Below are positions 2,602 to 55,333 of a DNA stretch of 64,000 nt, piece by piece (within the stretch, counting starts at the first letter, position 1; each line of letters opens with the position of its first letter). The position numbers and the translations under genes were made by a program. This stretch comes from Escherichia phage UE-S1. The DNA lies in the sequence record ON568341.1; one strand, 5' to 3'. The notes under the pieces are model-generated. The model did not search any database. It was given only the letters and a program-made list of their open reading frames with translations, and had not been told where the DNA came from.

Positions 2602-2629
2602 TTGACAAGATAGAATGATGTGATATAAT
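2602..2629 (+). promoter_or_regulatory. Sigma70-type promoter: TTGACA, 16-nt spacer, TGaTATAAT (extended -10)
   Basis: Exact -35 TTGACA at 2602-2607 and -10 TATAAT at 2624-2629 inside the motif GATGTGATATAAT. Confidence 0.6.
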
Positions 2630-2694
2630 AAGCATCAGACATAAAGTTTTCAAGCGGCACAAGATGTGAGTTTGAAAAAAATAAAAAAAAGTGA

Positions 2695-2722
2695 TTGACA
2701 AGTTGAAACGATGTGATATAAT
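2695..2722 (+). promoter_or_regulatory. Second tandem sigma70-type promoter: TTGACA, 16-nt spacer, TGaTATAAT
   Basis: TTGACA at 2695-2700, TATAAT at 2717-2722; same GATGTGATATAAT motif about 93 bp downstream of the first copy. Confidence 0.6.
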
Positions 2723-2892
2723 GTTCACATCAAGGCAGCAAAGAGATTTACCTTTTTAAACACACGGATGATTCATGAAGTAATAAAGGAACTGATAAGT
2801 TAAATTATTTTAACACAGTTCCTTTACTTTTGCCCACGGATTGGCTATAATAGAAACTTAAACGATTTTATCCAACAAAAGGAAATATATAC

Positions 2893-4218
2893 ATGACTAC
2901 TCAAAACGATATCCTGAATGTTAAACTGACTCCAAAGAAAGCTAAAGAAGCAATGGCACTAGCTGACATGATTCAAGATAGCCTGATGATTTGGGGTAGC
3001 CCAGGTATCGGTAAGTCTGCAATTGCTCGTCAATACGCTGATGAAAATTACCCTCTGCGTAAAGATAACGAAGCTAAAATCGAGTTCATGAAACAACAAA
3101 TTGAAGCTGACCCTGAAAATGCTGATCAGCTACGCCGTGAACTGGCTGCATTTGAAGCTAAACTAATCGACCAAGATACTAACTTCATCGATTTCCGTTT
3201 GTCTCAAATTGAACCAAGTGACCTCCGTGGTATCCCTGTACCAGAGAAGCTTTTCCGTAAAACTGACGGTTCTCTTCTCAAAGAATCTGAGCTTGCTGAA
3301 GCAAAAGATTATGTTGCTGAAACTGCTGTAGTTTGGGCTGCACCTAAAGTGCTGAAATTGCCAGAAGATTGGAAAGGGGTTATTCTGTTTGACGAAATTA
3401 ACTCTGCAATGCCAATTGTTCAGGCAGCGTCTTATCAGCTAATCCTCGACCGTTGTGTTGGTGAGATGAAGCTACCTAAAACTGCACTGATTCTTGCAGC
3501 AGGTAACCGTGAAACTGATGGCGGTGTAACGTTCTCACTGGCTACACCACTACGTGACCGTATGACACACATTGAGATGATTCCTTATCATCAAGATTGG
3601 ATTAACGATTATGCAATTGGTAAACGTTTGAACCCAGCAACTGTTGCGTTCATCAACAACACAGGTTCTAAGTACTTTAACACTCTTAGCCCACAAGATC
3701 CTTCTCACAGTGGTGGTACTTCTCCACGTTCATGGGAAGCTGTAGCACGCTACGAAGATCTCAAGAAAACTAAGACAATTGATAAAGAAGTGTTCCGTGC
3801 AATGATTGCTGGGCGTGTAGGTGAAGGTGTAGCAACTGAATACATTGAGTACGTTGATAACGTTGCTAAACTACCAGATACTATGTCTATTCTGTCTGGT
3901 GAAATCAAAGATATCGATGCAACTCTTGATATTTCTGCGAATTATTTTATTACTTTGAACTTGGTTTATAAAATTATCGACCTGTTCAATGAGAAGCAAG
4001 AACAACGTCTACCAGTGGAAGAATGGGGTAAACTGTGCAACAACTTCATTACCTTCCTTGACCATAACTTCTCTGCAACTCAAGCAGAACTGGCAGTTCT
4101 GGCAATTCGCACCATTACGCTTCATAAGGTTGCGATTTCCATTAAAGATGTACCAGCGTTTAAAGATTTTATCGCTAAGTACTCTGAACTAGTTCGTAAA
4201 GCACGCTCTCTTGGGTAA
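2893..4218 (+). CDS. MoxR-like (AAA_5 / CobS-like) AAA+ ATPase
   Basis: Walker A GSPGIGKS, Walker B ILFDEIN, later AAGNRE motif; AAGGAAA ribosome-binding site. Confidence 0.8.
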   Translation: MTTQNDILNVKLTPKKAKEAMALADMIQDSLMIWGSPGIGKSAIARQYADENYPLRKDNEAKIEFMKQQIEADPENADQLRRELAAFEAKLIDQDTNFIDFRLSQIEPSDLRGIPVPEKLFRKTDGSLLKESELAEAKDYVAETAVVWAAPKVLKLPEDWKGVILFDEINSAMPIVQAASYQLILDRCVGEMKLPKTALILAAGNRETDGGVTFSLATPLRDRMTHIEMIPYHQDWINDYAIGKRLNPATVAFINNTGSKYFNTLSPQDPSHSGGTSPRSWEAVARYEDLKKTKTIDKEVFRAMIAGRVGEGVATEYIEYVDNVAKLPDTMSILSGEIKDIDATLDISANYFITLNLVYKIIDLFNEKQEQRLPVEEWGKLCNNFITFLDHNFSATQAELAVLAIRTITLHKVAISIKDVPAFKDFIAKYSELVRKARSLG

Positions 4219-4238
4219 TTAACAAAGAGTGGTTGACA

Positions 4239-4268
4239 AGAAGGATACGATATAGTATCCTTCTTTTA
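4239..4268 (+). terminator. Intergenic stem-loop with U-tract between the ATPase and VWA genes (partial terminator or attenuator)
   Basis: AGAAGGATAC-gatata-GTATCCTTCT followed by TTTAT; a TTGACA lies just 5' but the -10 spacing is poor. Confidence 0.45.
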
Positions 4269-4292
4269 TCTTAACTAAACGAGGAAATATAC

Positions 4293-5717
4293 ATGTCGGA
4301 TAACAAATCTTCATCTAAGTTTAATGAAGTATCACCAGAACTCCAAAAGGAATGTCAAGATCGATTGGTTCTGGCTCGTACATCTTTGATGTTAACTGCT
4401 CCGTTCTTTGGTGTTTTGGCTTCGCGTTTACGTCCTGTTCCTAATAATACATGGTGTCGTACACTAGCAGTTGATGGGAAACATTTATTCTACAATGTAG
4501 AATTTGTTATGGGCATCCAAGATCAATCTAAAAAGAAAGAGTACGAAGATGCTATTCGTGAAAAACACCCAGAGGTTACTGATGAACAATTAAAAGAAAT
4601 GACAGAAGGTCTGACAGATGAAAACCTCATTGCAGTGATTTGTCATGAAATTTTGCATTGTGCTTACGACCACTTCCTTCGTCGTGGAATGCGTGATCCA
4701 CAACGATACAATCGTGCAGCAGATTATGCAATTAACCAAATTATTGTCCGTGAGAAAATTGGAAAAATCCAAAGCTCATGGTTATATGATAAAAAATATG
4801 AAGGAATGACCGCTGAAGAGATTTATATTCTTCTGGAAGATGAAGAACAAAAAGAAGAAGGTGAAGGGAACGGTCAACCACAAAGCGGTGGTGGTGAAGG
4901 TGAAGGTAAAAATCGCGGAACTTTTGGTGATATCAAAGATGGTAAGGGTAAACCAAAAGGTACAACAATTGACCAACATGACGTTCCACAAGAAGGCCAA
5001 GACGGTGGTTCAAGTGAACAGCAAAAACGCGATTATATGGATGATTTCAAAACAGCAATGATGAATGCTGCACGTGCTGGTGGCACACCAGCAGAAATCG
5101 CTCGTATGATTAATAACTTCAAAGAACCAAAGATTGATTGGCGTTCTAAACTTCAACGCACTCTTCGTAGCTGGTTGAAGTCTGATGCAACTTATCAAAA
5201 TCCAGCACGTCGTTCATGGGGTGCAGGTTTTGGTTCTAATGGTTCATTTTATGGTAATCCAATTTATCCAGGGATGAAACCAGATGATGATATTGATATT
5301 GCAATTGCACTCGATGCTTCTGGTTCTATTTCCGAAGACATGCTTCGTGATTTTATTAGTGAAGTTCTTGGTATCACTAAACAATTTAAACAGTTTAAAA
5401 TTCGTATCATGACATTTGATACTGAAGTTTATACTGTAAAAGATTACAAAACTGGTGAAGAACGTAAGATTCTGGAATATCCAGTAAAAGGTGGTGGTGG
5501 TACTGACTTTGAAGCAGTATGGGTTCATATGAAGAATGACAACTATAAGCCTAAACAGCTTGTAATGTTTACTGATGGTGAACCGTGGCAGTCATGGGGT
5601 GATCCTAACTACTGTAAAACACTGTTTGTGATTCACAGTAACCCAAATAAAGTTGCACCATTTGGTGAAACAGTACACTACGAGTATGAAGCAGACAAAA
5701 AACGTCAACGTAGTTAA
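4293..5717 (+). CDS. Protein with N-terminal HExxH metallopeptidase-like region and C-terminal von Willebrand factor A domain
   Basis: HEILH(C)AYDH motif; Gly/Glu-rich linker; MIDAS-like DASGS in IAIALDASGSISEDM; VMFTDGEPW. Confidence 0.75.
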   Translation: MSDNKSSSKFNEVSPELQKECQDRLVLARTSLMLTAPFFGVLASRLRPVPNNTWCRTLAVDGKHLFYNVEFVMGIQDQSKKKEYEDAIREKHPEVTDEQLKEMTEGLTDENLIAVICHEILHCAYDHFLRRGMRDPQRYNRAADYAINQIIVREKIGKIQSSWLYDKKYEGMTAEEIYILLEDEEQKEEGEGNGQPQSGGGEGEGKNRGTFGDIKDGKGKPKGTTIDQHDVPQEGQDGGSSEQQKRDYMDDFKTAMMNAARAGGTPAEIARMINNFKEPKIDWRSKLQRTLRSWLKSDATYQNPARRSWGAGFGSNGSFYGNPIYPGMKPDDDIDIAIALDASGSISEDMLRDFISEVLGITKQFKQFKIRIMTFDTEVYTVKDYKTGEERKILEYPVKGGGGTDFEAVWVHMKNDNYKPKQLVMFTDGEPWQSWGDPNYCKTLFVIHSNPNKVAPFGETVHYEYEADKKRQRS

Positions 5718-5729
5718 GTACTAAATAAT

Positions 5730-5759
5730 GAGAACGGAAATTTTCCGTTCTCTTCTTTT
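5730..5759 (+). terminator. Rho-independent terminator
   Basis: GAGAACGG-aaatttt-CCGTTCTC hairpin followed by a T-tract. Confidence 0.6.
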
Positions 5760-5765
5760 ATAAGT

Positions 5766-5793
5766 GAGACAACTCACAAAAATATGATATAAT
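5766..5793 (+). promoter_or_regulatory. Sigma70-like promoter: GAGACA, 16-nt spacer, TGaTATAAT
   Basis: GTGAGACAACT -35 element and extended -10 TGATATAAT upstream of the 5829-8883 gene block. Confidence 0.45.
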
Positions 5794-5828
5794 AGTTATT
5801 GTACCAATATACATGGAGAGTATTAAAA

Positions 5829-6074: not shown

Positions 6075-6076
6075 TT

Positions 6077-6733: not shown

Positions 6734-6736
6734 AAT

Positions 6737-7330
6737 ATGAAAAAGAATGAATTAGATGAAGCAATTAAAGGTTTATCTAATGTATGTTTTAGTGGCGGGG
6801 CAGCAGGTGCTGACCGCCTTTTTTCAATCTATGCAAAAAATAATGGATTTGAAGTTATTAATTTTTCATTCAAAGGTCATGTGCATAGTGTAGATGAAAG
6901 CACCATATTAGAAATACCATCCAATATTTTATCTGATATTTCTATATTAAATCAACTAAACATTGCATGTTATTCGTTGCAGCGAAAAGTACCAAAGCCT
7001 GGTTCATATGTTTACAACTTACTTGCAAGGAATAGTTATCAGATACTTAATACAGAAAGAATATATTGTATTGCAAATATTACATCGCCAACTAAGGTAA
7101 GTGGTGGTACTGCATGGGCAGTACAGATGTACATTGATTCAGTTGAAAATCCAGAAATTTATTGTTATGATATGAATTCACGTTCTGTGTTTTACTTCGA
7201 TACAGAACTGAAAGAGTTCAAACAATCATTCGTGGTTCCACCACCACATGGTAACTGGACTGGTATTGGTTCACGCAATGCAACAGAAAAACATATGGAA
7301 CATTTTATTACATTTTTCAAGGAAGAATAA
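6737..7330 (+). CDS. Rossmann-like protein with GGAxGxD motif (SLOG / LOG-DprA-like nucleotide-binding fold); function unknown
   Basis: N-terminal VCFSGGAAGADRLF resembles the glycine-rich loop of SLOG-family proteins; stop overlaps the thyA start (TAATG). Confidence 0.45.
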   Translation: MKKNELDEAIKGLSNVCFSGGAAGADRLFSIYAKNNGFEVINFSFKGHVHSVDESTILEIPSNILSDISILNQLNIACYSLQRKVPKPGSYVYNLLARNSYQILNTERIYCIANITSPTKVSGGTAWAVQMYIDSVENPEIYCYDMNSRSVFYFDTELKEFKQSFVVPPPHGNWTGIGSRNATEKHMEHFITFFKEE

Positions 7331-8883
7331 TGAAGCAACTACAAGAACTATATCAAAAAATTCTAGATGAAGGCGTAGAAAGCGTTGACCGTACTGGCGT
7401 TGGCACAATCAAACTTATCGGTCAACAAATGCGTTTCGACCTTAAAGATGGTTTCCCAGCAGTGACGACAAAACGTCTAGCTTGGAAATCAATGACTTCA
7501 GAATTACTATGGTTTATTGAAGGCTCCCATGATGAACGTCGCCTTTGTGAAATTTTACATGGAACTCGTGATACAGAAAAGAAAACTATTTGGACAGATA
7601 ATTGTTTAGATCGTGCAAAAAACGATCCCAATCGATTTAATGGGGAAACGGTCGGTAATATGTATGGCATGAATTGGCGTTATCAACCATCTGAACCACA
7701 TAGCTATCAATATATTGAGAGGAAAACATATATTGATGATTATGTTGAAAATCATATTTGTCCAGAAATTACTGATACATTTAATGGAGTTAAAATTCAC
7801 AAATCTGCCAAATGTGGGGATTATGAAGTTATTGGTAAACATCATAATAATATAGTAATTCGTTTCATTAACACCGGTTCATATAAAATTGTACCAAGAA
7901 CTGCGAAAAATATTAAAGATTTTTTCCAACCATCAATTGAAGGGATTGGATATTTGGGTGGTGTAATTCCTGATACATTAACTGCAAAAAAATTATATCA
8001 AATTTGGAAAGATATGATTATTAGAGTGTATAACCCTAGAAAAAATCATTTATCATATGAAAATATAACTGTATGCAAACGTTGGCATAATTTTATGAAT
8101 TTTTACAATGATGCTTTTTCATTATGGGGATTTCAAGAATTTGTTGACAGTGGGTATTCTCATCAACTTGATAAAGATTATTACGGTTCAAACATTTATT
8201 CACCTGATACTTGTATTTTTATATCAGCATCATTAAATAAAACATTAAATGGTGGTGGACATGGGTTTAAAATTTATCTTTATAAAGGTAATGTATTTTA
8301 TTCTAGAACCGATTTACAAGAATCACGTGGTTTAACAAGAAAGGCCAATTTACCAGATGATGTAACAATATTAGAAGATAATGAAACACACGTAGTAAGA
8401 CCAAAAATATACATTGATCAACTACAGCGTTGTATTGATTTAATAAAGAACGATCCAGATTCAAGACGAATTGTTATTACATCATGGAATTCTAGAGATA
8501 TTGAAAATGCAGCATTAGGTATGTGTCACCCATTAGTACAATGGTTTGTTATTAATGGTAAGTTGTCATGTTCATTTTATATGCGTAGTTCTGATAGCTT
8601 CTTAGGCTTACCATTCAACATAGCATCATATGCACTACTTACCCACATGATAGCACAAATATGTTCTCTAGAGGTTGGAGAATTGATTTATACAGGTGGT
8701 GATTGTCACATTTATAAAAACCACGTTGAACAAGTAAAAGAACAACTACAGCGAAAACCACGTGAATTACCTGAATTGTGGCTTGATCCTACCATTACTA
8801 ATATTGAAGATTTCACAATGGATTCTTTCAAATTAGTAAATTACAACCCAATGCCAACAATTAAAGCACCGATGGCTGTATAA
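7330..8883 (+). CDS. thyA: Thymidylate synthase (ThyA family) with a ~228-aa in-frame insertion
   Basis: N-terminal TS motifs (DRTGVGT, FPAVTTKR) and C-terminal TS core (NDPDSRRIVITSWN, catalytic CHPLVQWFV, LGLPFNIASYALL, GGDCHIY); 517 aa rather than ~265-285. Confidence 0.85.
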   Translation: MKQLQELYQKILDEGVESVDRTGVGTIKLIGQQMRFDLKDGFPAVTTKRLAWKSMTSELLWFIEGSHDERRLCEILHGTRDTEKKTIWTDNCLDRAKNDPNRFNGETVGNMYGMNWRYQPSEPHSYQYIERKTYIDDYVENHICPEITDTFNGVKIHKSAKCGDYEVIGKHHNNIVIRFINTGSYKIVPRTAKNIKDFFQPSIEGIGYLGGVIPDTLTAKKLYQIWKDMIIRVYNPRKNHLSYENITVCKRWHNFMNFYNDAFSLWGFQEFVDSGYSHQLDKDYYGSNIYSPDTCIFISASLNKTLNGGGHGFKIYLYKGNVFYSRTDLQESRGLTRKANLPDDVTILEDNETHVVRPKIYIDQLQRCIDLIKNDPDSRRIVITSWNSRDIENAALGMCHPLVQWFVINGKLSCSFYMRSSDSFLGLPFNIASYALLTHMIAQICSLEVGELIYTGGDCHIYKNHVEQVKEQLQRKPRELPELWLDPTITNIEDFTMDSFKLVNYNPMPTIKAPMAV

Positions 8884-8886
8884 ACG

Positions 8887-8917
8887 AAAAGGGAGAACAT
8901 CAGTTCTCCCTTTTTTA
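8887..8917. terminator. Bidirectional rho-independent terminator between convergent genes
   Basis: A-tract, GGGAGAAC-atcag-TTCTCCC hairpin, T-tract. Confidence 0.7.
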
Positions 8918-11188
8918 TTATCTAATTGTTACCAACGTTCTTCCGTCGAAACGTACATCAGGAGTTGAAGGTATACTGAACACTACGTTAGTGCCGTTAA
9001 ACGTCACGCTATCGACCTCAACACGAGTATAGACACCTGGACTAACCTGTTCCTGTATCTCTGCTGTGACGATGTTTGAGGCTGTTACAGTAAGGGTGTA
9101 GTAGTTACCACTTAATACCCAAGATGAAATGGTAAATGCATCGGTTCTTACTGAACCTGAACCAATTGGAACCCATTGACCTTGAACTTTTTGCATTGAA
9201 GTACGCTCGGTATTGGAGTATGCAATCATACCATCAACACCAACAGAGTTATCAATAGTAGCTAGTACTGGTAATTGAATACCATATCTATTGAAACGTG
9301 TTCTAATAATTCCATTATCATAGATACTTACATCAGCATAATTCCCCATTGAAAGTTTCAAATCTGAATCAACTAATTGCATTGTACTTTGGTTAGTAGG
9401 GCTTTCTAAAGTAATTATTCCATTTGGTAATAAGCTTAAGTTTTTAAATTTATTCGAATTACCATTAAAATTTGTATTAGCGTTGAAAGTACTAGTTCCA
9501 TTAACTACTATTGTGTTTTCTGCGGCATCACCTAATATTGTATTTCGTTGAACAATCAAGTTACCATTAGCAGTAATATTAGTCGCTGTAGTATCACCAT
9601 TTAATTTTGTATTAGCGTTGAAAGTACTAGTAGCATTAACTACCAATGTGTTTGTTGCGTTGTCACCTAATATAGTATCACTTTGAACATTCAAATTACC
9701 ACTAGCAGTAATATTAGTCGCTGTGGTATCGCCATTTAATTTACTTGTACCATCAACTACGATATTACTATTAAATTTCGTATTAGATTTAAAAGTACTA
9801 GTAGCATTAACTACCAATGTGTTTGCTGCGGTGTCACCTAATATTGTATTGCTTTGAACATTCAAATTACCACTAGCAGTAATATTACTAGCTGAAGTAT
9901 CACCAATTAATCTACTTGTACCATCAACTACGATATTACCATGAAAATCGCTTTCACCGTTTTTAAATTCCACTTGTACCGAATACATAGAACTAAATGA
10001 AATTATATTACTACTTGCACTTATACCAACATTAGTATTAGTTGGGTTATCGAAGTGTAATATTGGAGTTAATGCTGGTGTTGTTGTTGTTTGATAGAGC
10101 GTTAATGATGAGTTGTTAATTCGCACACGTTCTGTTCCGGCAGTACTAAATCCAATAGCATCATCAGCAGGATGAAAAATACCAGTATTAGTATCAGACC
10201 ATTTTTCAGGATCATTACCAGGATTACTTGTTGGGTCGAATGGTTTATTATTAAATGCTATCGCTGGTGCGGAAGCACTCCCATATACAACACCAAAACG
10301 ACCAGACCCTATTGTACCATCATCATACATTGAATCGCCTGTTCTACGTAAACATTCAATTACAACATTATCTATGGAAGTTTGAACTGTACCAGCATTA
10401 GTTCTGAATTGACGATTATTTGCAATCATAATAGTGTTATCATATAACACAGAAGCTGCTGAAATACTTGTTCTTGATTGACGAAGGCGTATGTTTTTAT
10501 CTTCAGTAATAATAATCCAATCACCATCAGATAGTGCTGTTTGATTCATTGGCACACCGGAAGCAAACGGCTTAGTTAAATCATCATCAGTTGCTAAATT
10601 AACAAGTCCACTATGCCCAGTACTAGGGATGGAAGTTGAAATAATTCTTGCAAAAGCGTTTGTTACGAGCTTTGCACCAGATATATTTGGATTAGAATCA
10701 ACATAATATAAAATTTCAACCCAATTCCCCTGTCCAGTTGGGTTAGTTGGAGTAAATGTTACTGGGCTGGTTTTTGGTTTATTCGCTTCAAAATGTGCTT
10801 GGGCGGCATCCATAATACCACGCACAACATAATAATCACCACTAAGTGATGATGAGGGTGCAGGTAGTGGGCTTTGGGCTAACGGTGGGTCAATATCATC
10901 TGGAATCGGATTATATGTACCAACAAACTGTAAACCACTAGTTACTGAATCTGGTAATTGAGATGTAAGAAGTTTACCATTTGCATCTAAGTTAGCGAAA
11001 CGCCTGTATGCCATTGAACCATCTTCAAAATCCAGAACACCCTCGAACGATTTCCATGCTTTATTGTATCTAATCATCCCTGATCTTATTACATCAGCGG
11101 TTTCTTTTGATGGTGCTTTTGGTAATTCTAAAAAAGATTTACTATCAATAATTACACCACCATCACCTCTAATTCGATTTATACTCAT
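8918..11188 (-). CDS. Tail fibre protein, repeat-rich (distal fibre-like)
   Basis: 756 aa; several tandem ~45-aa repeats (NITASGNLNVQS-TILGD-A-NTLVVNATSTF); Thr/Asn/Ser/Gly-rich. Confidence 0.6.
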   Translation of the reverse strand: MSINRIRGDGGVIIDSKSFLELPKAPSKETADVIRSGMIRYNKAWKSFEGVLDFEDGSMAYRRFANLDANGKLLTSQLPDSVTSGLQFVGTYNPIPDDIDPPLAQSPLPAPSSSLSGDYYVVRGIMDAAQAHFEANKPKTSPVTFTPTNPTGQGNWVEILYYVDSNPNISGAKLVTNAFARIISTSIPSTGHSGLVNLATDDDLTKPFASGVPMNQTALSDGDWIIITEDKNIRLRQSRTSISAASVLYDNTIMIANNRQFRTNAGTVQTSIDNVVIECLRRTGDSMYDDGTIGSGRFGVVYGSASAPAIAFNNKPFDPTSNPGNDPEKWSDTNTGIFHPADDAIGFSTAGTERVRINNSSLTLYQTTTTPALTPILHFDNPTNTNVGISASSNIISFSSMYSVQVEFKNGESDFHGNIVVDGTSRLIGDTSASNITASGNLNVQSNTILGDTAANTLVVNATSTFKSNTKFNSNIVVDGTSKLNGDTTATNITASGNLNVQSDTILGDNATNTLVVNATSTFNANTKLNGDTTATNITANGNLIVQRNTILGDAAENTIVVNGTSTFNANTNFNGNSNKFKNLSLLPNGIITLESPTNQSTMQLVDSDLKLSMGNYADVSIYDNGIIRTRFNRYGIQLPVLATIDNSVGVDGMIAYSNTERTSMQKVQGQWVPIGSGSVRTDAFTISSWVLSGNYYTLTVTASNIVTAEIQEQVSPGVYTRVEVDSVTFNGTNVVFSIPSTPDVRFDGRTLVTIR

Positions 11189-11229
11189 TTAAATATTTCC
11201 TCAGAATAGATTATATATGATGTATTTAT

Positions 11230-11267: not shown

Positions 11268-11272
11268 GAAAA

Positions 11273-26102: not shown

Positions 26103-27604
26103 TCTGTATCCTTATGTATACGATATGCAGTATTTGGTTTAACTGCGTCATGTAATGGAACTTTATTATCACTATTTACAAACTTAGTAAGTGCTAAATC
26201 TGCACCTTCCCATGGTTTTCTGCCACCATAATCAAAAATAACCCATGAATTCTTTGTTGCATTGAATTCCCATAGTGTGACTGGTGTATAATCGGTGCGA
26301 TAAAAATAATCCCCATCAACTGCGTCCGTAGGGAACATAGTTCCTTCTGGTACAGTTCCCCTGGCGGGTGGAATTTTCGGTCGATAATCCTGTTGGGCAT
26401 CAATATTTCCATATACACTATTTGATGTGAATGGCTCATTGACATAGGTTACTTTTGGTTCACCCCATCTATCGTCATTGTACTGAAAAATATGCGGTTC
26501 TTTATAAAAAATACAAAAATCTTCAATATCTTGCGGTGGAATATCACTTGTAGTGTATTCTACATCACAATTTAGCCATTTTTTAGCACTTTTGTCATAC
26601 TGATACAACGTATACCCGGTCACATCTGCATCATTTTCTTTAAAGAAGAAATCCCCATCCATTGGTTTTTTTGGAAAAATGGTTCCACGCTTGACTTCCA
26701 GTGAAATCCATGTATCATTGTCATACTCTTTAAGTACTGGGTACGTTTTTTTCAAAAAATACATACCATTAGCAGGTTCTTCTGGAAAATCGTAACCGTT
26801 GAGCATATATTTAGATAAATCTACGGTGTCGCGGCGGTCATCATACAAATGCTCGTTCGTATAATGGATATAAGGTACTTCATCATCAGCTTGCATGATA
26901 ATACGGTTCATAATATCCATTTCATTACTATAGTTACTGTTTTCGGACGTACCATCAGTAGTGTTTCCATTACCATTATTTGGATCATTTGGGTTATCTG
27001 GGTAATTATTGTTTCCCAGCAAGTCAGAGTACTCAGGTGAATCAGTTAGTGGTTTCACTCGAAGTTTGTAAATGTGGTGTTGCCACGTCACAGAGTAACC
27101 TTCGGCTGTACGAAATGCATCTTGTACCACATAGAAGCGATTTAGTCCAGAATCTTTACCAAGTACATCATAATCACGTAAATTTGGCAGTTCTATCACA
27201 TCACCAGGCATGATTTTCCTGCCTAATCGTTGCATCATCGTATTGTAATGAATTGTGATGTCCATTGTATTAAAATTAAAGAACAATCCTGGGATTTTCA
27301 AGTCAGGAGTTGCTTCTTGGACTTGATAAACACAACTAAGTGTGATTGCTTCAAGGTTGTAGCTTCGATTTGGCGTGTCTCCAAAAATTAAATCACCAAT
27401 ACTTGACACAACCGTACCAGAAGATGTATAATCACCACCATATGATAAGTCATTGGTATCAGCAACTGGTTTTGGACCGACATAAGCGTAAAGCCACATG
27501 TCAACTCCACCAATATTGTATTGTTCGGCAATGGCAGAGTCAATGAACTTGTAATCATTTGTTCTACCTTTTTTCCACATTCTATATGTCATATTTGTCT
27601 CCAA
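26099..27604 (-). CDS. Hypothetical virion or structural protein
   Basis: 501-aa ORF; Asn/Asp/Gly/Tyr-rich. Confidence 0.5.
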   Translation of the reverse strand: METNMTYRMWKKGRTNDYKFIDSAIAEQYNIGGVDMWLYAYVGPKPVADTNDLSYGGDYTSSGTVVSSIGDLIFGDTPNRSYNLEAITLSCVYQVQEATPDLKIPGLFFNFNTMDITIHYNTMMQRLGRKIMPGDVIELPNLRDYDVLGKDSGLNRFYVVQDAFRTAEGYSVTWQHHIYKLRVKPLTDSPEYSDLLGNNNYPDNPNDPNNGNGNTTDGTSENSNYSNEMDIMNRIIMQADDEVPYIHYTNEHLYDDRRDTVDLSKYMLNGYDFPEEPANGMYFLKKTYPVLKEYDNDTWISLEVKRGTIFPKKPMDGDFFFKENDADVTGYTLYQYDKSAKKWLNCDVEYTTSDIPPQDIEDFCIFYKEPHIFQYNDDRWGEPKVTYVNEPFTSNSVYGNIDAQQDYRPKIPPARGTVPEGTMFPTDAVDGDYFYRTDYTPVTLWEFNATKNSWVIFDYGGRKPWEGADLALTKFVNSDNKVPLHDAVKPNTAYRIHKDTE

Positions 27605-27634: not shown

Positions 27635-27662
27635 TAGACAAACCATAAGAATGTGATATAAT
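27635..27662 (+). promoter_or_regulatory. Sigma70-type promoter: TAGACA, 16-nt spacer, TGaTATAAT
   Basis: Same ATGTGATATAAT motif as the promoters at 2602 and 2695; about 40 nt upstream of the ClpA-like start. Confidence 0.5.
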
Positions 27663-40078: not shown

Positions 40079-43000
40079 TTAAGAACCAATATTTATATTG
40101 CTTTTAGCTAATGAGTTAACTATTTGAACATTTTCTACTGATGCCGTACTCAAAAATATTTGGTCCGAACGTGATGGAATTTCAAATAGTGACCCAAATT
40201 TTGAATTTGGATTTTGTGCAACAATAACAATTGTACTAATATGTCTCCCCAATTGGGAATGTATATAAGTACACAAATCAGTGTAATAGAAACTTTCACC
40301 AAAATCCCAATTATCAACATTAAAATATTCATTTGTTAATGCAATAACATTTTGACGAATTTCATCGTCACTCATAGTACTATTTGGTAATTTAACAACT
40401 TTAAAATCAGCTTTATAGTCTTCAGCAGCACTATTGCCAAACAATGGTAGGTACTCTGCACTATGCCAAATAATACTGTCACTGATGACAATTTTTTGCT
40501 CAACATCTTTGAACATATTTTTCAATTCAACTGATGTAGGTGGTTTTGGGATACTTCCAACTGCATTATTTTTCAACCACACATCAACTTCGGTTTTATA
40601 CGAGTTAGTTAGAACATACATATCAATTAAGTTTGTTCTACTTGGATCAATGCGATTATCGTCAGGTGCATAATGTTTCCAATGGAAGTCAATACTTGTA
40701 CGAGCATTTGTTTTGACTGTGTATTGTGCAGTAACATCTTTATAACCATAGTAATCCAACTTCTGATTCTCATCAGAATTAGTACCCATGTTGTTAATTG
40801 TACGATAAAATGCGAGTTCTGGTGTAACAGTTATGGTGTCATCTGAATATGTCAAATTACTAATTAATTGACCCAAACGATCATTGTTGTTACCAACGGT
40901 TTGTTCGATGAAATAATATTTACCATCATATTTAAAACACACTAAGAATCCAGAACCTTTACTGTACAATCCACTCAATGAGTTAGAACGAATTGCATTA
41001 TTTCGTACAAATTCAGTTCTTTTATATGTATTAGGTTCAGCTAATGCTTGTTCCATCGTATAAGACCAAGATGAATCTAGAAACGTGAATGTATCATTTG
41101 GTAAAGATAGAACTGAAATAGTAAAATCATTATTTTCTTTGAATATCAAAATACCACCATATTTCAATGCATCAGTACCTGACCATTCTGGAACAATTTC
41201 TTTAAATTGGTTTGGTTCCAATGGTATACCATTACTATCTACTTTTCTAGATGTGACAATAATACGAGAGCCATCAAGATATCCATTTTCTTGCTGTATT
41301 GTATCATAAATTTGAAAATCAATATTACTCGTCAGTCCAGAATTGTTAGTACTGGTGGTGTTCGAAGATAAAATTTCAATCTTATCGCTTTGAACAGTGC
41401 CAGTACTAATATCAGTTATTTTTTTGGATGAAACAAAGTAAAATTTCACTTTATCCCCACCAACGAATATATATTCAATACCATTAGCGTCAAATTCCCA
41501 AGTTTCTGCTGTATATTTTACATTTATAACAACCAAAACTTCATGACCATTATACATAATAGTATCATCATTCGTACTTACTTCTACCGGAACCCATGCA
41601 GTTGTTTCTTTGTCATGCACAATGACAAAATCAGTTTTCTTATCCAACATTGCAGAAATAGATTGAACTTCAACGGAATCAAACCTAGTTCTATATGGTA
41701 ATATATAATCAATTGCTTGCATTCTACTTGGTACGGATGTACTTAATACATAAAACCCATTATCTAATACACTAACAATACTTGCCCATACTGTAGTGGT
41801 AGAGTTAGAAAATTTAATCAAAGTACCCACCTGATACGAGCCATATACAGTCCCAGATGAACCCAAAATTCTACCATATGTATTTGTAGTATAATTTGAA
41901 TTATATACAGGCGTCCATGATTGTTGGATTTCAATGCCAATCGTATTGGAAGGGTAAGCTTGATAGCGTTGTATTACCGCATTTTCACCAATCAATGGTT
42001 GAATATTATCAATAACAATGCTGGCATTAGTTTTTGTTGTTGGTAGTAATAGTGACCTATTAAATTTAGTATTTTCTTGATATAATGCCCCGTCATCACT
42101 AAACACATCAGTGTTTTGGTATTTTCCAGTAGGATCATTGATGTCAATAAATCTAGACTGACCACTATAAATTCTATTAATAGCTTTCGACTTAAGCACT
42201 GTATTCCCTAAACTAAGGGGTGCTATATTATAATCTTCACCATTAACAAAGCGGTTTTGTGTATAGTACATTTGTGGTGCACGTGCTTTAATCTGCTCAA
42301 TTGTCTCAGCACTTTGTGCACGATCTGATTCATATTGTAATGAAAAACGTACATCCAACGTACTAGATTCATAACTTGATTGTGTTTTAGTTCGATATGT
42401 ATACTTTACACTTTTATTTTGAATTTCTGATGTTTTAATGTTATACGTTTTACCATTACTGACGCGATACCACACGCGAAAAGTTCCACGCGGCACAACA
42501 CCACTTCTAGAATCTGGATATTTAATTGTTATTTGGTCTTTGTCACGTGTTGAAACAGCAAAAATTGTTTTTAATTGACGGTTAACCGTATTATATGCAA
42601 TACTTTCCATAGATGGTACTTTTGTCCATTTCGCACGCACAATACCATCTTCATTAATTTCTTGAACCCAAACATCAGTTTCGTTTATATTATCAACGTT
42701 TACATCTTGTATTCTATTTTCTTCACGAATATTATATTGATAATCTTGATATGTCAACGTCCCTTGTATAAAATATACAAAAAAACCAGTATTTGGTGAA
42801 CTGAATCCATTACCATCATTTTGATAGACAATATATTTTTGTTCTTGCGGTTCTGGGTGACGTTCCTCAACACCAACGGATGTAATGTCAGGGTTTACCA
42901 CTTCAAATGTCATAGATTCACCATTTACTGTTGCAACAAATGGTATACTTGGTGCAGTCATTGGAATTGTATTCATCCTATACAATTGTCGAGATACACC

Positions 43001-43637: not shown

Positions 43638-43641
43638 TTAG

Positions 43642-44050: not shown

Positions 44051-44539
44051 TTATACGGATTCGACGATACGTGCCATCTTTTCCGCTCTAGAAGTGGTTT
44101 GTTTATACCATGTACTATCACGCAATTCTTTACCAGCAGTTTTATAATCAGCTTTACCTAATGCGGACATTGCTTTTTTGAATTTCAAAACTTTGGTTTT
44201 ACCCATTTGGAATACCATCATCCACAATACACGTTGTACCTGTACTGGTGCTGTCATACCAAACTGTTCATAAATGGATTTTGCGTCATTGTACGCAGTT
44301 TGAGCATCTTTAATAAGAAGTTGGTCTGCTTGTTCTTCAGTTAAACCATTTTTGAAGTTCTCGTTGGGAAGAACTAAATGACCATAACCAATAGTATCAA
44401 GTCCGAGGCTATCTTTATATACCCAAAACTTATCATTTTTAAAATATCCAAGTTTTTTTTGATAAGAAATTGTACCTTCAAACTCTTTAATTTCTTTAAA
44501 AAACTGCTCATCTGTATTTTTAATTTCCCATTTACTCAT
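44051..44539 (-). CDS. Glycoside hydrolase family 24 lysozyme (T4 lysozyme-like), free-standing
   Basis: T4-lysozyme-like catalytic triad positions (E in KEFEG, D in KDSLG, T in DTIGYGH) and MVFQMG motif. Confidence 0.85.
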   Translation of the reverse strand: MSKWEIKNTDEQFFKEIKEFEGTISYQKKLGYFKNDKFWVYKDSLGLDTIGYGHLVLPNENFKNGLTEEQADQLLIKDAQTAYNDAKSIYEQFGMTAPVQVQRVLWMMVFQMGKTKVLKFKKAMSALGKADYKTAGKELRDSTWYKQTTSRAEKMARIVESV

Positions 44540-44555: not shown

Positions 44556-44563
44556 TATTTATA
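44556..44563 (-). promoter_or_regulatory. T4 late-promoter-like TATAAATA box
   Basis: Plus-strand TATTTATA is the reverse complement of TATAAATA, 17 nt upstream of the lysozyme start. Confidence 0.35.
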
Positions 44564-47239: not shown

Positions 47240-47252
47240 ATTTTTTTATTCC

Positions 47253-49502: not shown

Positions 49503-49513
49503 GTGTTACTCCA

Positions 49514-49828
49514 TTAGCCTATGTTTCGAGTACCATTAAGATAGTTTTGTACTCTTTGATTTGCTGGTATTCTAATTGTTACTCCACTTTTAAAATTATA
49601 TATAGGATCTTCTCCTAATATATCTGGATTTAACAATGCAAAAATATAATATAGACGTTCATTGCCATACATCTCGTAGGCTAAACGCCAGGGTTGATAT
49701 TCATACTTCAATGGGATCTCATAAAAATCATCAGTATCAGCAGGAACTATATCTCGTGGTAAATTATAACCAAGATACCAAGATTGTTTCACCTTAGCAT
49801 AAGGTGAGTATTGACTATAGTTGGACAT
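49514..49828 (-). CDS. Small LysM-like domain protein (tail protein X / gp53-like)
   Basis: YEIPLKYEYQPWRLAYEMYGNERLYYIFALLNPDIL...GVTIRIP fits a LysM-like pattern. Confidence 0.4.
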   Translation of the reverse strand: MSNYSQYSPYAKVKQSWYLGYNLPRDIVPADTDDFYEIPLKYEYQPWRLAYEMYGNERLYYIFALLNPDILGEDPIYNFKSGVTIRIPANQRVQNYLNGTRNIG

Positions 49829-50577
49829 TAAATAAATCCTCCTTTGCGTAATAGTTCACCTCGTTTAAATGCATTGAGGTTAAACGTTTTAGTCATATAA
49901 TCAGATGTCGGTTGTTCTTCAAGTTGTAACATAACTGATATTTTTTGTGGAACCCAAACTTCATCTTGTGGATTCATATATCCAGTACTTCTAAGTTGTT
50001 CGAAGAATTTTCTACTATCCATATCGGATAAATTAAAAGTACTGTCACTACTATTCAAAGGAACTTGAATATAAGAAACATCATTAGGATATGTAAAATT
50101 ATAAGATTTTAAAATTACCGGAATATCATTATATGTGTAACGACCATATCCACTTAAAAGTAAAATTGGTGGTGGTGCACCAGCAATTGCCAATTCGGGG
50201 TTATTAGCAGATGCTGCTTGTCTACCAAAATCCATCAATGAAACCGAACGTATAAAATGAACACATGCCAATGCATACATGGCTTCTGCTGCCGTATTAG
50301 CATAAAATTCACCCTGAATAGTGAAAACCGTATTGGTGGTGTTTTTGTAATTATTATAGTTACTATTGGTATGTATAGGTGACTGTGTTTCATACTGAAT
50401 TGACCTTTGTTCAGTAATTATTGGTGTTACAGTCCAAACCAACCCATTAGTTGGACGCAGAAACGAAAGTAGTGTTGGTTCGGAGCTATCCCCGAAATCA
50501 CCATATACATAGTTAGCACCTGCGGCTTTAGGTCGTAATCGAATTCTACGATCAATCATCTTTTGATTCTCCATCAT
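49828..50577 (-). CDS. Hypothetical protein (start moved to the first in-frame ATG; the track start at 50616 is a GTG)
   Basis: ORF with ATGATGG at 50577-50572; stop overlaps the downstream start. Confidence 0.45.
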   Translation of the reverse strand: MMENQKMIDRRIRLRPKAAGANYVYGDFGDSSEPTLLSFLRPTNGLVWTVTPIITEQRSIQYETQSPIHTNSNYNNYKNTTNTVFTIQGEFYANTAAEAMYALACVHFIRSVSLMDFGRQAASANNPELAIAGAPPPILLLSGYGRYTYNDIPVILKSYNFTYPNDVSYIQVPLNSSDSTFNLSDMDSRKFFEQLRSTGYMNPQDEVWVPQKISVMLQLEEQPTSDYMTKTFNLNAFKRGELLRKGGFI

Positions 50578-50604
50578 AAGGGAACATTTGATGTATTTAT
50601 ACGT

Positions 50605-50632
50605 GGGACAAAACACTTTTTGGTGCTATAAT
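50605..50632 (+). promoter_or_regulatory. Sigma70-like promoter: GGGACA, 16-nt spacer, TGcTATAAT
   Basis: Extended -10 TGCTATAAT at 50624-50632, about 58 nt upstream of the gp55-like ATG. Confidence 0.4.
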
Positions 50633-50689
50633 AACATTGATGGTATAAGGATTGTATCTATTGGATTTAAACATGGAGAGTTGAATATA

Positions 50690-51529
50690 ATGACAAATAG
50701 ACCAAAGCGTAAAAAGTATCTCAATAATGCTGATTTACTTCGTGAAATACAAAAAAGTAAGATTTCATATTGCTGGTTATTAGACAAATCATATAGTATG
50801 TATGATTATATCGTTTTTCATGAGTCAGAAATTACTGCTGAGTTACTTGAAAAAGCAAAAGCAGCACGAATTAAACGACTTAACAATGAAATGCTTGATA
50901 GTATTCGTGCAAAGGAAAATATGAGTGCTAAAAAAGCGAAAGAATATGCAGAAGAAAATAATCTAGTTATTACTGATGTTCCAATTGATGAAGTAGTTAT
51001 TCGTGTTATTACAGATGAACACATCCCACCAGATACTAGAGTTAATTTTGAACCTTTCAAACATTATATCGTAGATAATGAAGGTATTCTTTATGAAGTA
51101 TGTCGCTCTCATTGGAAAGGTGACCTTGAATCTGGGGAATTTAGTACTGTTCATGGTAAAATAACAAATGAACTAGGGAAAATGTTCATTAAACTAGCAG
51201 AGGAAATCTCACATAAATCTAACTATAGAAACTATACATACTTAGATGAAATGATGGGTGATGCAAGAATACAATTAGTTAAAAATGCACTTCTCTTTAA
51301 AGAGAGTATTCTTTATAAAAAAGACAAACCCGCTGTACAACTAAATCCTTTCTCTTACTATACATCATTCGTAAACAATAGTTTTCGTTCAATTTTGAAT
51401 AGTGAGAAAAATGTTCGAAATATACGTGATGATTTACTTGAAATGCATGGCTTTACACCATCACATACACGTCAAATTGAAATTGAATTGAACATGATTG
51501 AAAGGAAAAATGAAGATGGCACTGTTTGA
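50690..51529 (+). CDS. gp55-like late-transcription sigma factor with an internal insertion
   Basis: YLNNADLLREIQKSK resembles the T4 gp55 N-terminus; distal segments GKMFIKLAEEIS and FSYYTSFVNNSFRSIL resemble gp55 core regions (from memory); GGAGAG ribosome-binding site. Confidence 0.5.
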   Translation: MTNRPKRKKYLNNADLLREIQKSKISYCWLLDKSYSMYDYIVFHESEITAELLEKAKAARIKRLNNEMLDSIRAKENMSAKKAKEYAEENNLVITDVPIDEVVIRVITDEHIPPDTRVNFEPFKHYIVDNEGILYEVCRSHWKGDLESGEFSTVHGKITNELGKMFIKLAEEISHKSNYRNYTYLDEMMGDARIQLVKNALLFKESILYKKDKPAVQLNPFSYYTSFVNNSFRSILNSEKNVRNIRDDLLEMHGFTPSHTRQIEIELNMIERKNEDGTV

Positions 51530-52547
51530 TAAAGCAATTACATTCACTGATATCCATTTAGGTTTAAAGAATAACAGCAAGCAGCACAATGAAGATTGTT
51601 TAAACTTCATTAAATTTATGATTGATGTAGCTAAAAAAAATAATATTAAATTTTGTGTTTTTATGGGTGATTATTTTCACAATAGAAGTAATATAAATAT
51701 CCAAACACTAAACTATGGTTTACAAATACTTCAATTACTAAATGATAATTTTGAAAAAGTTTATTTTCTAGTTGGGAACCATGATATGTATCACAAAAAC
51801 AAACGTGATATAACAAGTATCAACATGGCCCAAGTTTATGAAAATATAGAATTCATAAACGAAATTACAACGATTGATGATTGTACTTTTATTCCTTTCA
51901 TGATTGAAGATGAATATAAGTTGTTACCACAACTAAAAAGTAAGTATGTTTTTGGACACCTAGAATTACCAGGTTACTTACTTAACAAAATGGTCGAAAT
52001 GCCCGACCATGGTAAAGAAACAGAGGGTTCTTTTGGTGGTTGTGAGTATGTTTTTAGTGGGCATTTTCATAAGAGACAATCAAAAACAACATCAAAGGGA
52101 ACTCGTGTAGTTTATACTGGTAATTGTTTCCCACATAATTTTTCCGATACATGGGATGATGCAAGAGGTGTGATGATTTTAGAACATGGAAAAGAACCAA
52201 TTTTCAATTCTTGGACAGAAGCACCAAAATATAGAACATTTACACTTTCAGAACTTTTGACTGACCCAAGTTATTATCTTCAAGAGAATACAATTTCAAA
52301 GGTTCAAGTTGATATTGCGATAACTACAGATGAAATTAGTTTTATTCGTGATACTTTCACTAAACTTTATAACATACGTGAATTTAACGTAGTTACTAGT
52401 AAACAAAGTATATCAGAATTGATTGAAGATGGTAAAAGCTTTGAAAGTACTGAGTCAGTTGATGAGATTGTTTTACAACAAATTATGGAAATTGATTCAC
52501 CAATGTTCGATAAAAATCTTCTAATCCAAATTTACAGATCGCTATAA
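51516..52547 (+). CDS. Mre11/SbcD-family nuclease (T4 gp47-like)
   Basis: Calcineurin-like phosphoesterase motifs (TDIHLG, GDYFHN, GNHDM, GHLE, GHFH); start chosen at the ATG with an AGGAAA ribosome-binding site. Confidence 0.75.
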   Translation: MALFDKAITFTDIHLGLKNNSKQHNEDCLNFIKFMIDVAKKNNIKFCVFMGDYFHNRSNINIQTLNYGLQILQLLNDNFEKVYFLVGNHDMYHKNKRDITSINMAQVYENIEFINEITTIDDCTFIPFMIEDEYKLLPQLKSKYVFGHLELPGYLLNKMVEMPDHGKETEGSFGGCEYVFSGHFHKRQSKTTSKGTRVVYTGNCFPHNFSDTWDDARGVMILEHGKEPIFNSWTEAPKYRTFTLSELLTDPSYYLQENTISKVQVDIAITTDEISFIRDTFTKLYNIREFNVVTSKQSISELIEDGKSFESTESVDEIVLQQIMEIDSPMFDKNLLIQIYRSL

Positions 52548-52555
52548 GGGAATAT

Positions 52556-54703: not shown

Positions 54704-54711
54704 TTAAAAGA

Positions 54712-54740
54712 TAAAGGGAGCCTTAGCTCCCTTTTTTTAC
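54712..54740. terminator. Bidirectional rho-independent terminator overlapping the 3' end of the minus-strand gene
   Basis: AAGGGAGC-ctta-GCTCCCTT hairpin followed by T7. Confidence 0.6.
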
Positions 54741-55214
54741 ATCAACCATATTTAATTTACCGTCCTTAATCAGCTTTCTAGCTTGTTTTGCACGAGTAGT
54801 AGTGTTACTGCCAGGGACAACTCCGAACCCTTCCAGAATCTCGTTTTGCTGCGTTGCTGGGAGCCTTTTAAATTTATTAGTATCCACTGTTAGTGCCGTG
54901 TGATGTATAACTTGCTCTTCTGGTGGAATATTATTGTTCTTTTCAAGGTAGTCAGCAAGGTTGCGTAGTACTTCATGCAATGGCTTATCTGTTAAATGAC
55001 TAAGACAGCGTTTAAATGAATTTGCAACCCTTCCTTCCCATCCATTCACCTCATTTTGAAGAACCTGTCTACAATGTTGATTTCCACCATGATAGTGATC
55101 CAGAACTGGTTTAGTTATTTTTATGCCTATGATGGGGTCAATGCCATTTTGTTTATTTAGCAATTCAGTTCGATAGTTTGCAGCATCCTTACTATCTTTT
55201 AATCTTTTTTTCAT
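54723..55214 (-). CDS. Endonuclease VII-like His-Me finger nuclease (candidate junction resolvase)
   Basis: LDHYHGGNQHCRQVLQNEVNGWEGR resembles the T4 endonuclease VII HNH-like core as I recall it. Confidence 0.45.
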   Translation of the reverse strand: MKKRLKDSKDAANYRTELLNKQNGIDPIIGIKITKPVLDHYHGGNQHCRQVLQNEVNGWEGRVANSFKRCLSHLTDKPLHEVLRNLADYLEKNNNIPPEEQVIHHTALTVDTNKFKRLPATQQNEILEGFGVVPGSNTTTRAKQARKLIKDGKLNMVDVKKGS

Positions 55215-55305
55215 AATTCCTCACCAAACTATTTGTCATCACAATATTTATAGATTAGTTATTTGCAATATTTTAAGTACTTAATGAATATTTTATAAAA
55301 ATAGT

Positions 55306-55333
55306 GAGACAACTTTAAAATTTGTGCTATAAT
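55306..55333 (+). promoter_or_regulatory. Sigma70-like promoter: GAGACA, 16-nt spacer, TGcTATAAT, firing into a non-coding block
   Basis: GTGAGACAACT plus TGCTATAAT; near-identical architecture to the promoter at 5766-5793. Confidence 0.45.

Follow-up and report, generated by a model that had tools for sequence, protein, structure and literature searches.

Six intergenic sites in a stretch of Escherichia phage UE-S1 DNA (sequence record ON568341.1) form one conserved class of predicted promoters of RaK2-like jumbo phages, which would use the host RNA polymerase core. The stretch was analysed over its full length of 64,000 nucleotides (nt) and is called the window below. In the architecture of the class an A-rich tract is followed by a 7-bp box at the −35 position, exactly 13 bp and the sequence TRTGnTATAAT. 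The box reads TG[A/G]GACA in Asteriusvirus and GT[T/A]GACA in the copies at 2602, 2695 and 27635, which a preliminary description of the window had set apart as 'Family A' from a 'Family B' at 5766, 50605 and 55306. The class heads the thyA operon of nucleotide and DNA metabolism, the genes for chaperone/protease-like ATPases, the late sigma factor gene together with SbcCD, and a structured RNA. Its box is most likely read by a factor that the phage itself encodes.

The window comes from a RaK2-like (Asteriusvirus-like) jumbo myovirus of E. coli. Over long stretches it is 91–92% identical to the Asteriusvirus genomes 121Q, PBECO4, phAPEC6 and G17, and the identity to more distant relatives is ~85% for fEgEco12, ~80% for A4 and ~70–74% for RaK2, Munch, GAP32 and CBB. 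We took the gene map of the window from the annotation of relatives, ran the genome-wide motif tests on the complete 121Q genome (348.5 kb) and obtained the chance expectation for patterns in the window from 100 dinucleotide shuffles. The window is AT-rich, and the base composition of the genome is ~35% G+C.

Six intergenic sites share a −35 box, a 16-bp spacer and an extended −10 element

The Family A pattern, T[TA]GACA-N10-ATGTGATATAAT, matched exactly at 2602, 2695 and 27635 and only on the + strand, just as had been described, and with up to two mismatches it gave 4 matches where 0.04 were expected. The Family B sites at 5766, 50605 and 55306 were also present, all on the + strand, but their spacing had been misstated. 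When written as a hexamer, 16 nt and TG[AC]TATAAT, the pattern had 0 matches in the window; the gap between the hexamer and the TG is 13 nt, and 16 nt is the spacing from hexamer to hexamer. The corrected pattern, again with up to two mismatches, found exactly the six A and B sites (0.96 expected), a number that 0 of the 100 shuffles reached. The extended sequence said to be common to the 5766 and 55306 copies was found as GTGAGACAACT at 5764 and 55304.

All six sites are intergenic, lie on the same strand as the downstream gene or RNA, and have a 16-bp spacer and TGnTATAAT. A neutral hexamer scan returned them as the only intergenic places in the window at which a −35-like hexamer, a 16-bp spacer, TATAAT and TG occur together. 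The sequence TGnTATAAT has 12 sites in the window, of which only these six precede a transcription unit of the same orientation. Conservation extends beyond the canonical hexamers, as the preliminary description had noticed: T/G stands before the −35-like hexamer and an A after it, TRTG stands before the −10 hexamer, an A-rich UP-like tract is present, and g.tt..TGTAG recurs after the −10 hexamer. The MotA-box core TGCTT occurs in none of the six −35 regions. The downstream genes had been named correctly: the protein encoded behind 2602 and 2695 is an AAA/MoxR-like ATPase with weak Pfam matches, the ClpA-like protein behind 27635 has strong Pfam matches, and the thyA operon and a gp55-like sigma gene follow 5766 and 50605.

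Genome-wide distribution in 121Q

The genome-wide motif search that had been proposed as a check was carried out on 121Q, where the pattern G[AG]GACA-N13-TG[AC]TATAAT had 12 matches versus 0.0 expected and a broader form had 17 versus 0.23. When the distance between GACA and TGnTATAAT was varied from N11 to N15, the counts were 0, 0, 19, 4 and 1, all on the + (coding) strand. An iterated weight matrix for this type of site, called class B hereafter, retrieved 28 sites in 121Q and 0 in shuffles; 23 of the 28 are intergenic by RefSeq annotation. They stand in front of genes for the single-stranded DNA-binding protein (two in tandem), primase, exonuclease, topoisomerase II, a tRNA cluster, a ClpP-like protease, a nudix hydrolase, the thyA operon, the ClpA-like protein and the late sigma factor, and in several unannotated gaps. 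Applied to the window, the matrix trained on 121Q picked 27635 together with 5766, 50605 and 55306.

121Q also contains 32 perfect TTGACA-N16-18-TATAAT sites versus 0.8 expected. Many of them lie within a region of small open reading frames at 135–154 kb and have the extended similarity aaaatagtTTGACAAtagttttTAGTACTGTATAATagtttACATCAAgg in common. We regard TTGACA-N16/17-TATAAT without TG as the presumptive early class, and none of the intergenic promoters predicted in the window belongs to it. Sorting the 121Q matches to NNGACA-N16-TATAAT by the first two bases of the hexamer and by the presence of TG gave 15 sites with TT and without TG, 2 with TT and TG, 17 with TG and without TT, and 3 with neither (Fisher P = 1e-5). 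Among the 17 non-TT sites that bear TG, hexamer positions 1 and 2 are GG, GA or TG in 16; the 17th is AG or TA. The true contrast among the predicted promoters of 121Q is TTGACA without TG versus a G-rich box with TG, and not Family A versus Family B.

Two arrangements in 121Q were seen beside these sites. At 98719, 109300, 110582 and 112750 a composite of terminator and promoter occurs, in which the hairpin GGGTTGACTTCGGTCAGCCC provides TTGACT as a −35 sequence and is followed by TTTT and then by TGCTATAAT; the same hairpin appears three times among the listed CBB terminators. A 2-kb annotation gap at 135195–137160 has a class-B-like site at 135737 and a perfect early promoter sequence at 135822; additional small genes or RNA genes that escaped annotation may be present there.

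Conservation at orthologous gene fronts

For four genes, a predicted promoter is retained in front of the orthologues, in as many as seven phages. TGnTATAAT and the distance of 13–14 bp are constant at these fronts, while the sequence of the spacer varies freely. In front of the ATPase gene the −35 element is TTGACA in this phage, 121Q, A4 and RaK2, TGAAACG in GAP32 and GGGACAA in Munch; for the proximal site at 2695 the orthologous RaK2 box reads TTTGACA in full. The distal site at 2602 is kept in A4 and in 121Q, where its −10 hexamer is TACAAT, and the intergenic region with both sites is 97% identical to 121Q versus ~91% for the surrounding 10 kb. The ClpA front has GTAGACA or GTTGACA within Asteriusvirus and GTTGACA in fEgEco12, with TGGAACG in GAP32 and GGGACAA in Munch. 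The predicted promoters of the thyA operon and of the gp55-like gene have TG[A/G]GACA here and in Munch and TG[A/G]AACG in GAP32; the individual thyA boxes are TGGGACA in 121Q and A4, TTGAACA in RaK2, TGAAACG in GAP32 and, as aligned at that front, GGGACAA in Munch. By lineage, then, the box is TGrGACA in Asteriusvirus and Munch-like phages, TTGAACA in RaK2 and TGrAAC[G/C/A] in GAP32, CBB, Yen9-04 and Serratia phage BF.

Because the orthologous Family A promoters of GAP32 and Munch are of class B, Family A is a subset of a single class. Its members are those predicted promoters whose box equals or nearly equals the −35 hexamer of sigma-70; two of them, 2602 and 2695, are putative hybrids that combine a perfect sigma-70 −35 with an extended −10 element. 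The idea of two box families is corrected accordingly in the layout suggested here for the genus, which comprises early TTGACA promoters, an extended −10 class with the box, and TATAAATA late promoters.

A conserved structured RNA follows the site at 55306

Downstream of the predicted promoter at 55306 the + strand contains no open reading frame of more than 36 amino acids. The region is occupied by a conserved structured RNA with an internal intrinsic terminator at 55788–55810 and an invariant hairpin at 55816–55839. Searches of Rfam (gathering threshold on the whole window; E up to 10 on 55200–56100) and with ARAGORN found no family and no tRNA. Within 49.5–57.5 kb, DNA similarity to CBB and EJP2 persists in this RNA alone. 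The RNAalifold consensus has 93 pairs, of which 48 have changes on both sides, and 93% of the cells are paired. An exact 20-mer of the invariant hairpin occurred in 10 stretches of IMG/VR, and the contigs were about 350 kb long in every case except one.

Four paralogues were found in 121Q (~326636, 247474, 192778 and 90303), each in an unannotated gap of 600–800 nt. The matrix found a class-B promoter for three of them; at the remaining one the box is the variant TGGGATG. Homologues in fEgEco12, EJP2, GAP32 and CBB each stand behind the box of their own lineage, in register. A copy with 70.5% identity is carried by 2 of 5426 complete E. coli genomes. The copy of E. coli LR-29-1 (8892–9540 of the stretch compared) belongs to a small island that adjoins ffs and contains an integrase, IS3 and DUF4326, DUF488 and dual-OB genes. 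This RNA is preceded by TGGGATG-N13-TGATATAAT, an architecture of the phage type, and the island copy might represent a satellite or decoy. That paralogues of the RNA, different phage genera and a chromosomal island all retain the promoter in register is our strongest indirect support that class-B sites function, and it suggests that these sites point to RNA genes missed by annotation pipelines.

The RNA alignment also contains a module (55722–55752 in the window) that consists of a hairpin followed by CGTCCAAAATT and differs in position among paralogues and orthologues. It is found near the 3′ part in the window and in CBB/c2, and in mid-RNA in c2, c3, c4 and GAP32, and it behaves like a mobile or optional insert.

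A phage sigma factor as candidate reader of the box

The box is lineage-specific in phages whose hosts are all Enterobacterales, and it is rich in G at bases for which sigma-70 favours TT. For these reasons it is likely that the phage encodes the reader. The suggestion of phage-specific recognition made in the preliminary description fits such a lineage-specific upstream element. We consider a phage RpoD-like sigma factor the best candidate. This protein (gp167 in 121Q), which has sigma-70 regions 2, 3 and 4, is present in all these phages. The window does not include its gene, which in 121Q belongs to the early region and has no class-B site directly in front; the nearest upstream matches are perfect TTGACA-N17-TATAAT. 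The sigma factor evolves fast, being 35–60% identical between phages whose structural genes are still similar.

The last helix of the sigma factor, the putative recognition helix, was compared with the box in 12 contigs. It reads SR[S/T]S[I/L]HR with TGrGACA-type boxes, SKATLSR with TGrAAC[G/C/A] boxes and VRGTLHY with the TTGAACA box of RaK2. The equivalences with sigma-70 region 4.2 were assigned manually, since HMMER and hhalign alignments end at the first helix of the motif, before the last helix, and MAFFT misplaces an insertion; in this alignment the varying residues occupy the positions of E585, R588 and Q589 of sigma-70. Residues E585 and R588 of sigma-70 govern recognition of the third −35 base, and the substitutions E585Q and R588H relax specificity at −33 (according to a review). 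The third hexamer base is also the one that distinguishes G-type from A-type boxes. Our prediction is that this base should track one or two residues of the last helix of the phage sigma factor. Such a link would bear on the role of the RpoD-like sigma in group 2 jumbo phages, which according to reviews have no RNA polymerase and encode a minimal (gp55-like) sigma and an RpoD-like sigma; gp33 orthologues have also been reported in this group (review).

Enrichment of 7-mers in the intergenic DNA of 121Q revealed no other recurrent motif that the phage sigma factor could serve. Apart from Shine-Dalgarno sequences and ATAAATA, the enriched 7-mers came from terminator halves and from the early or class-B promoters. 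ACTGGCA and ACTTGCA were considered as a separate motif and proved to be variants of the early promoter.

The account that we favour joins one promoter class and a phage-encoded reader in a cascade of three steps. Host sigma-70 would read the early TTGACA promoters in the first step; the phage RpoD-like sigma factor, or sigma-70 by way of the extended −10 element, would read the class-B promoters in the second; and the gp55-like sigma factor (50690..51529) would read the TATAAATA late promoters in the third. The hybrids at 2602 and 2695 could fire from the moment of infection. Such a scheme resembles the SPO1 gp28 to gp33/34 and phiEco32 gp36 cascades, in which an early phage sigma factor redirects the host core and a new promoter class expresses the next sigma factor. 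It departs from them in that the step from the RpoD-like sigma to class B is inferred here, and in that the class-B −10 element is indistinguishable from that of the host. The chances that this account holds as a whole appear to us about evenly balanced.

Several points weigh against it. About two evolutionary changes and the hand alignment underlie the correspondence of helix and box. TGnTATAAT is the exact sigma-70 optimum and is invariant across genera, and the phage sigma factors are without the residues by which sigma-70 reads the −10 element and the TG (equivalents of W433, W434, Q437, T440 and E458) and differ among themselves at these positions. Since the −10 element is invariant while these residues are missing from the phage sigma factors, host sigma-70 may read at least the −10 element, and since the same promoter type occurs on an E. 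coli chromosomal island, host sigma-70 may even suffice. The presence of the RpoD-like sigma in this phage is assumed from relatives with 91–96% DNA identity. Our search of the literature on Asteriusvirus (phAPEC6, Sharanji and others) turned up no promoter or transcriptome study of the genus and no transcription start sites, RNA sequencing or in vitro transcription data for it. Promoter activity and timing were therefore inferred from sequence.

Alternative explanations of the six sites

It is hardly credible that the matches are accidental or represent repeated DNA that does not serve as promoters, and the view that recurring promoter architectures are present was borne out. The AT-rich window contains TATAAT alone 123 times, but the full patterns exceed the shuffles about 100-fold, every copy is intergenic and oriented with its downstream unit, and between genera the sites have stayed conserved in diverging surroundings. 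They are not repeats by descent, because their spacers and flanks vary from copy to copy. The proposal that A and B are distinct recognition or timing classes, A early and B middle, could appeal to the perfect sigma-70 −35 of 2602 and 2695, which the class-B matrix did not pick, to the start region of 121Q early promoters, ACATCAAGG, at 2695 (where gttcACATCAAGg just downstream matches it), and to ATGTGATATAAT, which all three A sites have in common. Yet the class-B matrix picks 27635 with its TAGACA, GAP32 and Munch have class-B promoters at the positions orthologous to the A promoters, class-B boxes of 121Q can likewise be accompanied by TGTGATATAAT (10459, 68650 and 191055 are examples), and the early class of 121Q is without TG. 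We regard a division into these two classes as decidedly unlikely.

Two further explanations assign host sigma-70 a larger part. It might read the six sites alone, as ordinary extended −10 promoters in which the box is a weakened −35 (its GACA half) for which TGn compensates, without any recognition specific to the phage. Like such E. coli promoters, the sites have a consensus −10 hexamer, TG at −15/−14, a 16-bp spacer and an A-rich UP-like tract; the optimum for sigma-70 is TGnTATAAT, GACA is the 3′ half of TTGACA, and the −10 element is invariant while the phage sigma factors, which lack the residues that read it and the TG, diverge to 35% identity. The occurrence of the same promoter form on the E. 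coli chromosome points in the same direction, and promoters of this kind need little from the −35 region (review). A relaxed or absent −35 would then be expected, whereas the −35 position is conserved, G-rich and lineage-specific although the hosts are all Enterobacterales, and its spacing is rigid, with the distance fixed at N13. At ~35% G+C an unread −35 should drift to A/T, but 16 of 17 sites in 121Q have GG, GA or TG and almost never TT, and the GAP32/CBB box TGAAACG matches TTGACA at 2 of 6 positions and is nevertheless conserved in 18 promoters. On this evidence we think it unlikely that sigma-70 acts alone. T4 middle promoters, which depend on MotA and AsiA, have a sigma-70 −10 element, often with TGn, and a phage box that replaces the −35. 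An appropriation of this kind, in which sigma-70 would read the −10 element and TG, and a phage activator, with or without a region-4 anti-sigma factor, would read the box, matches the layout of the six sites. It would also suit the genes behind class-B promoters, which resemble T4 middle genes: replication and nucleotide metabolism genes are driven, and the late sigma gene lies downstream of such a promoter. A blocker of region 4 would silence the TG-less early class and spare the extended −10 class, which fits the TT/TG dichotomy. Against this, the box differs from the MotA box (TGCTTtA); no credible AsiA homologue was detected in 121Q or in the window, where the best tblastn match (121Q gp502, E = 0.055) was marginal and had no Pfam or PHROG support, and MotA was not searched for. 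The T4 AsiA sequence, 100% identical in T4-like phages, returned only T4-like phages among the matches listed (40 of 1173 records). Unlike T4, moreover, the present phages have a full RpoD-like sigma, so that the genome already holds a more economical candidate with its own region 4. We consider such an appropriation quite improbable.

A bolder form of the account that we favour can be put forward tentatively, as a possibility short of an even chance. The class-B box might be the element of a co-evolving phage reader across RaK2-like genera, either the divergent RpoD-like sigma without the canonical melting tryptophans or an appropriator of another kind, with a regulon that includes a hitherto undescribed multi-copy structured RNA of ~500 nt. 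The module of promoter and RNA might have been captured by the E. coli island as a possible satellite or sensor of jumbo-phage middle transcription.

Relation to the promoter classes of CBB and GAP32

The promoter finding was largely expected, because the same three classes had already been predicted for CBB and GAP32. With MEME, three predicted promoter classes were obtained for CBB and, as cited there, for GAP32 (Buttimer et al. 2017, PMC5259590, Table S6). One consists of RpoD-like promoters with an UP-like element. Another, 'Promoter 1' or 'divergent RpoD-like', is TGAAACG-N13-T[A/G]TGnTATAAT, with 18 copies before DNA-synthesis genes, one of them (Porf_244) before the gp55-like gene, and the third is ATAAATA before structural genes (PMC5259590). 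The divergent RpoD-like class has the same register as the sites in the window (a 7-bp box, 13 bp and T[A/G]TGnTATAAT) and the same gene fronts, before the gp55-like sigma gene and genes of DNA and nucleotide metabolism. GAP32 carries its own version at five orthologous fronts, namely those of the ATPase, the thyA operon, ClpA, gp55 and the RNA. The box itself differs, being TG[A/G]GACA or GT[T/A]GACA here and TG[A/G]AAC[G/A] in CBB and GAP32; in comparison with the CBB box TGAAACG, T1, G2, A5 and C6 are common and positions 4 and 7 differ. Class B is a genus-level variant of the predicted divergent RpoD-like class of CBB and GAP32, and it is undescribed for Asteriusvirus in the literature searched. 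Since the CBB study covered only 100 bp upstream of open reading frames, it missed the copies before RNA genes.

Late promoters and the gp55-like sigma factor

The late box TATAAATA occurs 7 times in the window versus 10.4 expected and so is not above chance in number, but 6 of the 7 copies lie 24–74 nt upstream of a start codon on the same strand (binomial P ~3e-9). Three had been reported before structural genes, a placement that holds; the copies at 57204 and 63088 are on the + strand, the one at 44556 proved to be on the − strand, and four had been missed, at 40097, 50601 and 55252 on the − strand and at 51692 on the + strand. Across 121Q the box is four-fold depleted (17 copies versus 63.8 expected), and 12 of the 17 are intergenic, 12–146 nt (11 of them 12–57 nt) before mostly structural genes. 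Other late genes in the window carry [A/C/G]TAAATA.

The gp55-like gene is annotated as a late sigma gene in relatives, and its product, which had no Pfam match, is presumed to read the TATAAATA boxes. The presence of this gene together with the placement of the boxes points to an ordinary T4-type late system, with the same 8-mer upstream of structural genes and a gp55-like sigma factor encoded by the phage. A difference from T4 is that many late genes here have only [A/C/G]TAAATA, as in CBB. The class-B promoter predicted for the gp55-like gene adjoins, in divergent orientation, a late promoter of the opposite strand.

Table 1. Positions of predicted regulatory elements, the structured RNA and the late sigma gene in the window.
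Feature	Position	Strand	Details
Distal predicted promoter of tandem pair, AAA/MoxR-like ATPase gene	2602..2629	+	TTGACA, 16-bp spacer, TGTGATATAAT, A-rich tract upstream
Proximal predicted promoter of tandem pair	2695..2722	+	TTGACA-N16-TATAAT with TG
Terminator-like hairpin and T tract in ATPase leader, between tandem promoters and start codon	2785..2831	+	AAAGGAACTG...CAGTTCCTTT
Intrinsic terminator closing upstream unit, directly before thyA-operon promoter	5730..5752	+	
Predicted class-B promoter of thyA operon	5764..5793	+	gTGAGACA, 13 nt, TGATATAAT
Predicted promoter of ClpA-like gene	27635..27662	+	gTAGACA, 13 nt, TGATATAAT; class-B matrix score 31.9
TATAAATA late box	40090..40097	−	74 nt upstream of gene for 3331-amino-acid virion protein
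TATAAATA late box	44556..44563	−	24 nt upstream of baseplate-hub/lysozyme gene (44051..44539); 121Q copy at 315857
TATAAATA late box	50594..50601	−	42 nt upstream of structural gene 49828..50559; 121Q copy at 321896
Predicted class-B promoter of gp55-like sigma/SbcD/SbcC operon	50604..50632	+	TGGGACA, 13 nt, TGCTATAAT
gp55-like late sigma gene	50690..51529	+	PHROG 12791 'sigma factor for late transcription', 8e-154; phrog_234, 8e-18
TATAAATA late box	55245..55252	−	38 nt upstream of endonuclease VII gene; 121Q copy at 326546
Predicted class-B promoter, no open reading frame downstream	55305..55333	+	TGAGACA, 13 nt, TGCTATAAT; class-B matrix score 42.1
Conserved structured noncoding RNA, predicted transcription unit of promoter 55306	55341..55870	+	~470–530 nt
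TATAAATA late box	57204..57211	+	40 nt upstream of virion protein gene 57244..59448
TATAAATA late box	63088..63095	+	55 nt upstream of scaffolding-protein gene; 121Q copy at 334383

Additional observations

The terminator-like hairpin in the ATPase leader, which follows the two strongest predicted promoters, is kept in RaK2, Munch and GAP32 with compensating changes on both arms (compared by eye). Given this conservation, the tandem promoters may feed an attenuator or a short RNA, the hairpin being either the attenuator itself or the end of a short leader RNA. An additional −10-like TATAAT is found after the hairpin, at 2846. At the thyA operon the arrangement of a hairpin followed by the promoter is kept in all 6 phages compared.

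Two candidate elements near the Family A sites were rejected. A CRP site for the 'TGTGA' of Family A was considered, but an inverted TGTGA/TCACA pair occurs at the 2695 copy only, with a gap of 8 bp where CRP needs 6. TGAAACG, the sequence of the CBB box, is present within the 2695 spacer but is 10 bp out of register, and it was treated as a coincidence.

Five sigma-70 hexamer pairs (11–12 of 12 positions) lie at 1421, 1568, 2013, 2124 and 2462 within structural-protein genes, forming a cluster (1421–2490, + strand) just upstream of the tandem promoters at 2602 and 2695. On the + strand, a perfect TTGACA-N18-TATAAT at 27403 is antisense inside the gene that precedes ClpA. Both this site and the one at 2124 are perfect in 121Q too, and a promoter-like form of the 27403 site is kept in A4 and GAP32. 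The sites at 1421–2462 and at 27403 may be promoters internal to genes, or they may have arisen from constraint on the coding sequence.

The thymidylate synthase open reading frame at 7330–8883 (+ strand) encodes 517 amino acids, versus 309 in 121Q. Its ThyA Pfam match is split in two, the second part covering residues 361–517 (model positions 108–266), so that the predicted protein appears to carry an in-frame insertion of roughly 200 amino acids, possibly an intein.

CAGTAC, GTACTG and AGTACT are the top three over-represented hexamers. The palindrome (C)AGTACT(G) has 903 copies in 121Q versus 97 expected and 77 in the window versus 14 expected, and it occurs in coding DNA in all three codon phases, in intergenic DNA, and inside 121Q early promoters between the −35 and −10 hexamers.

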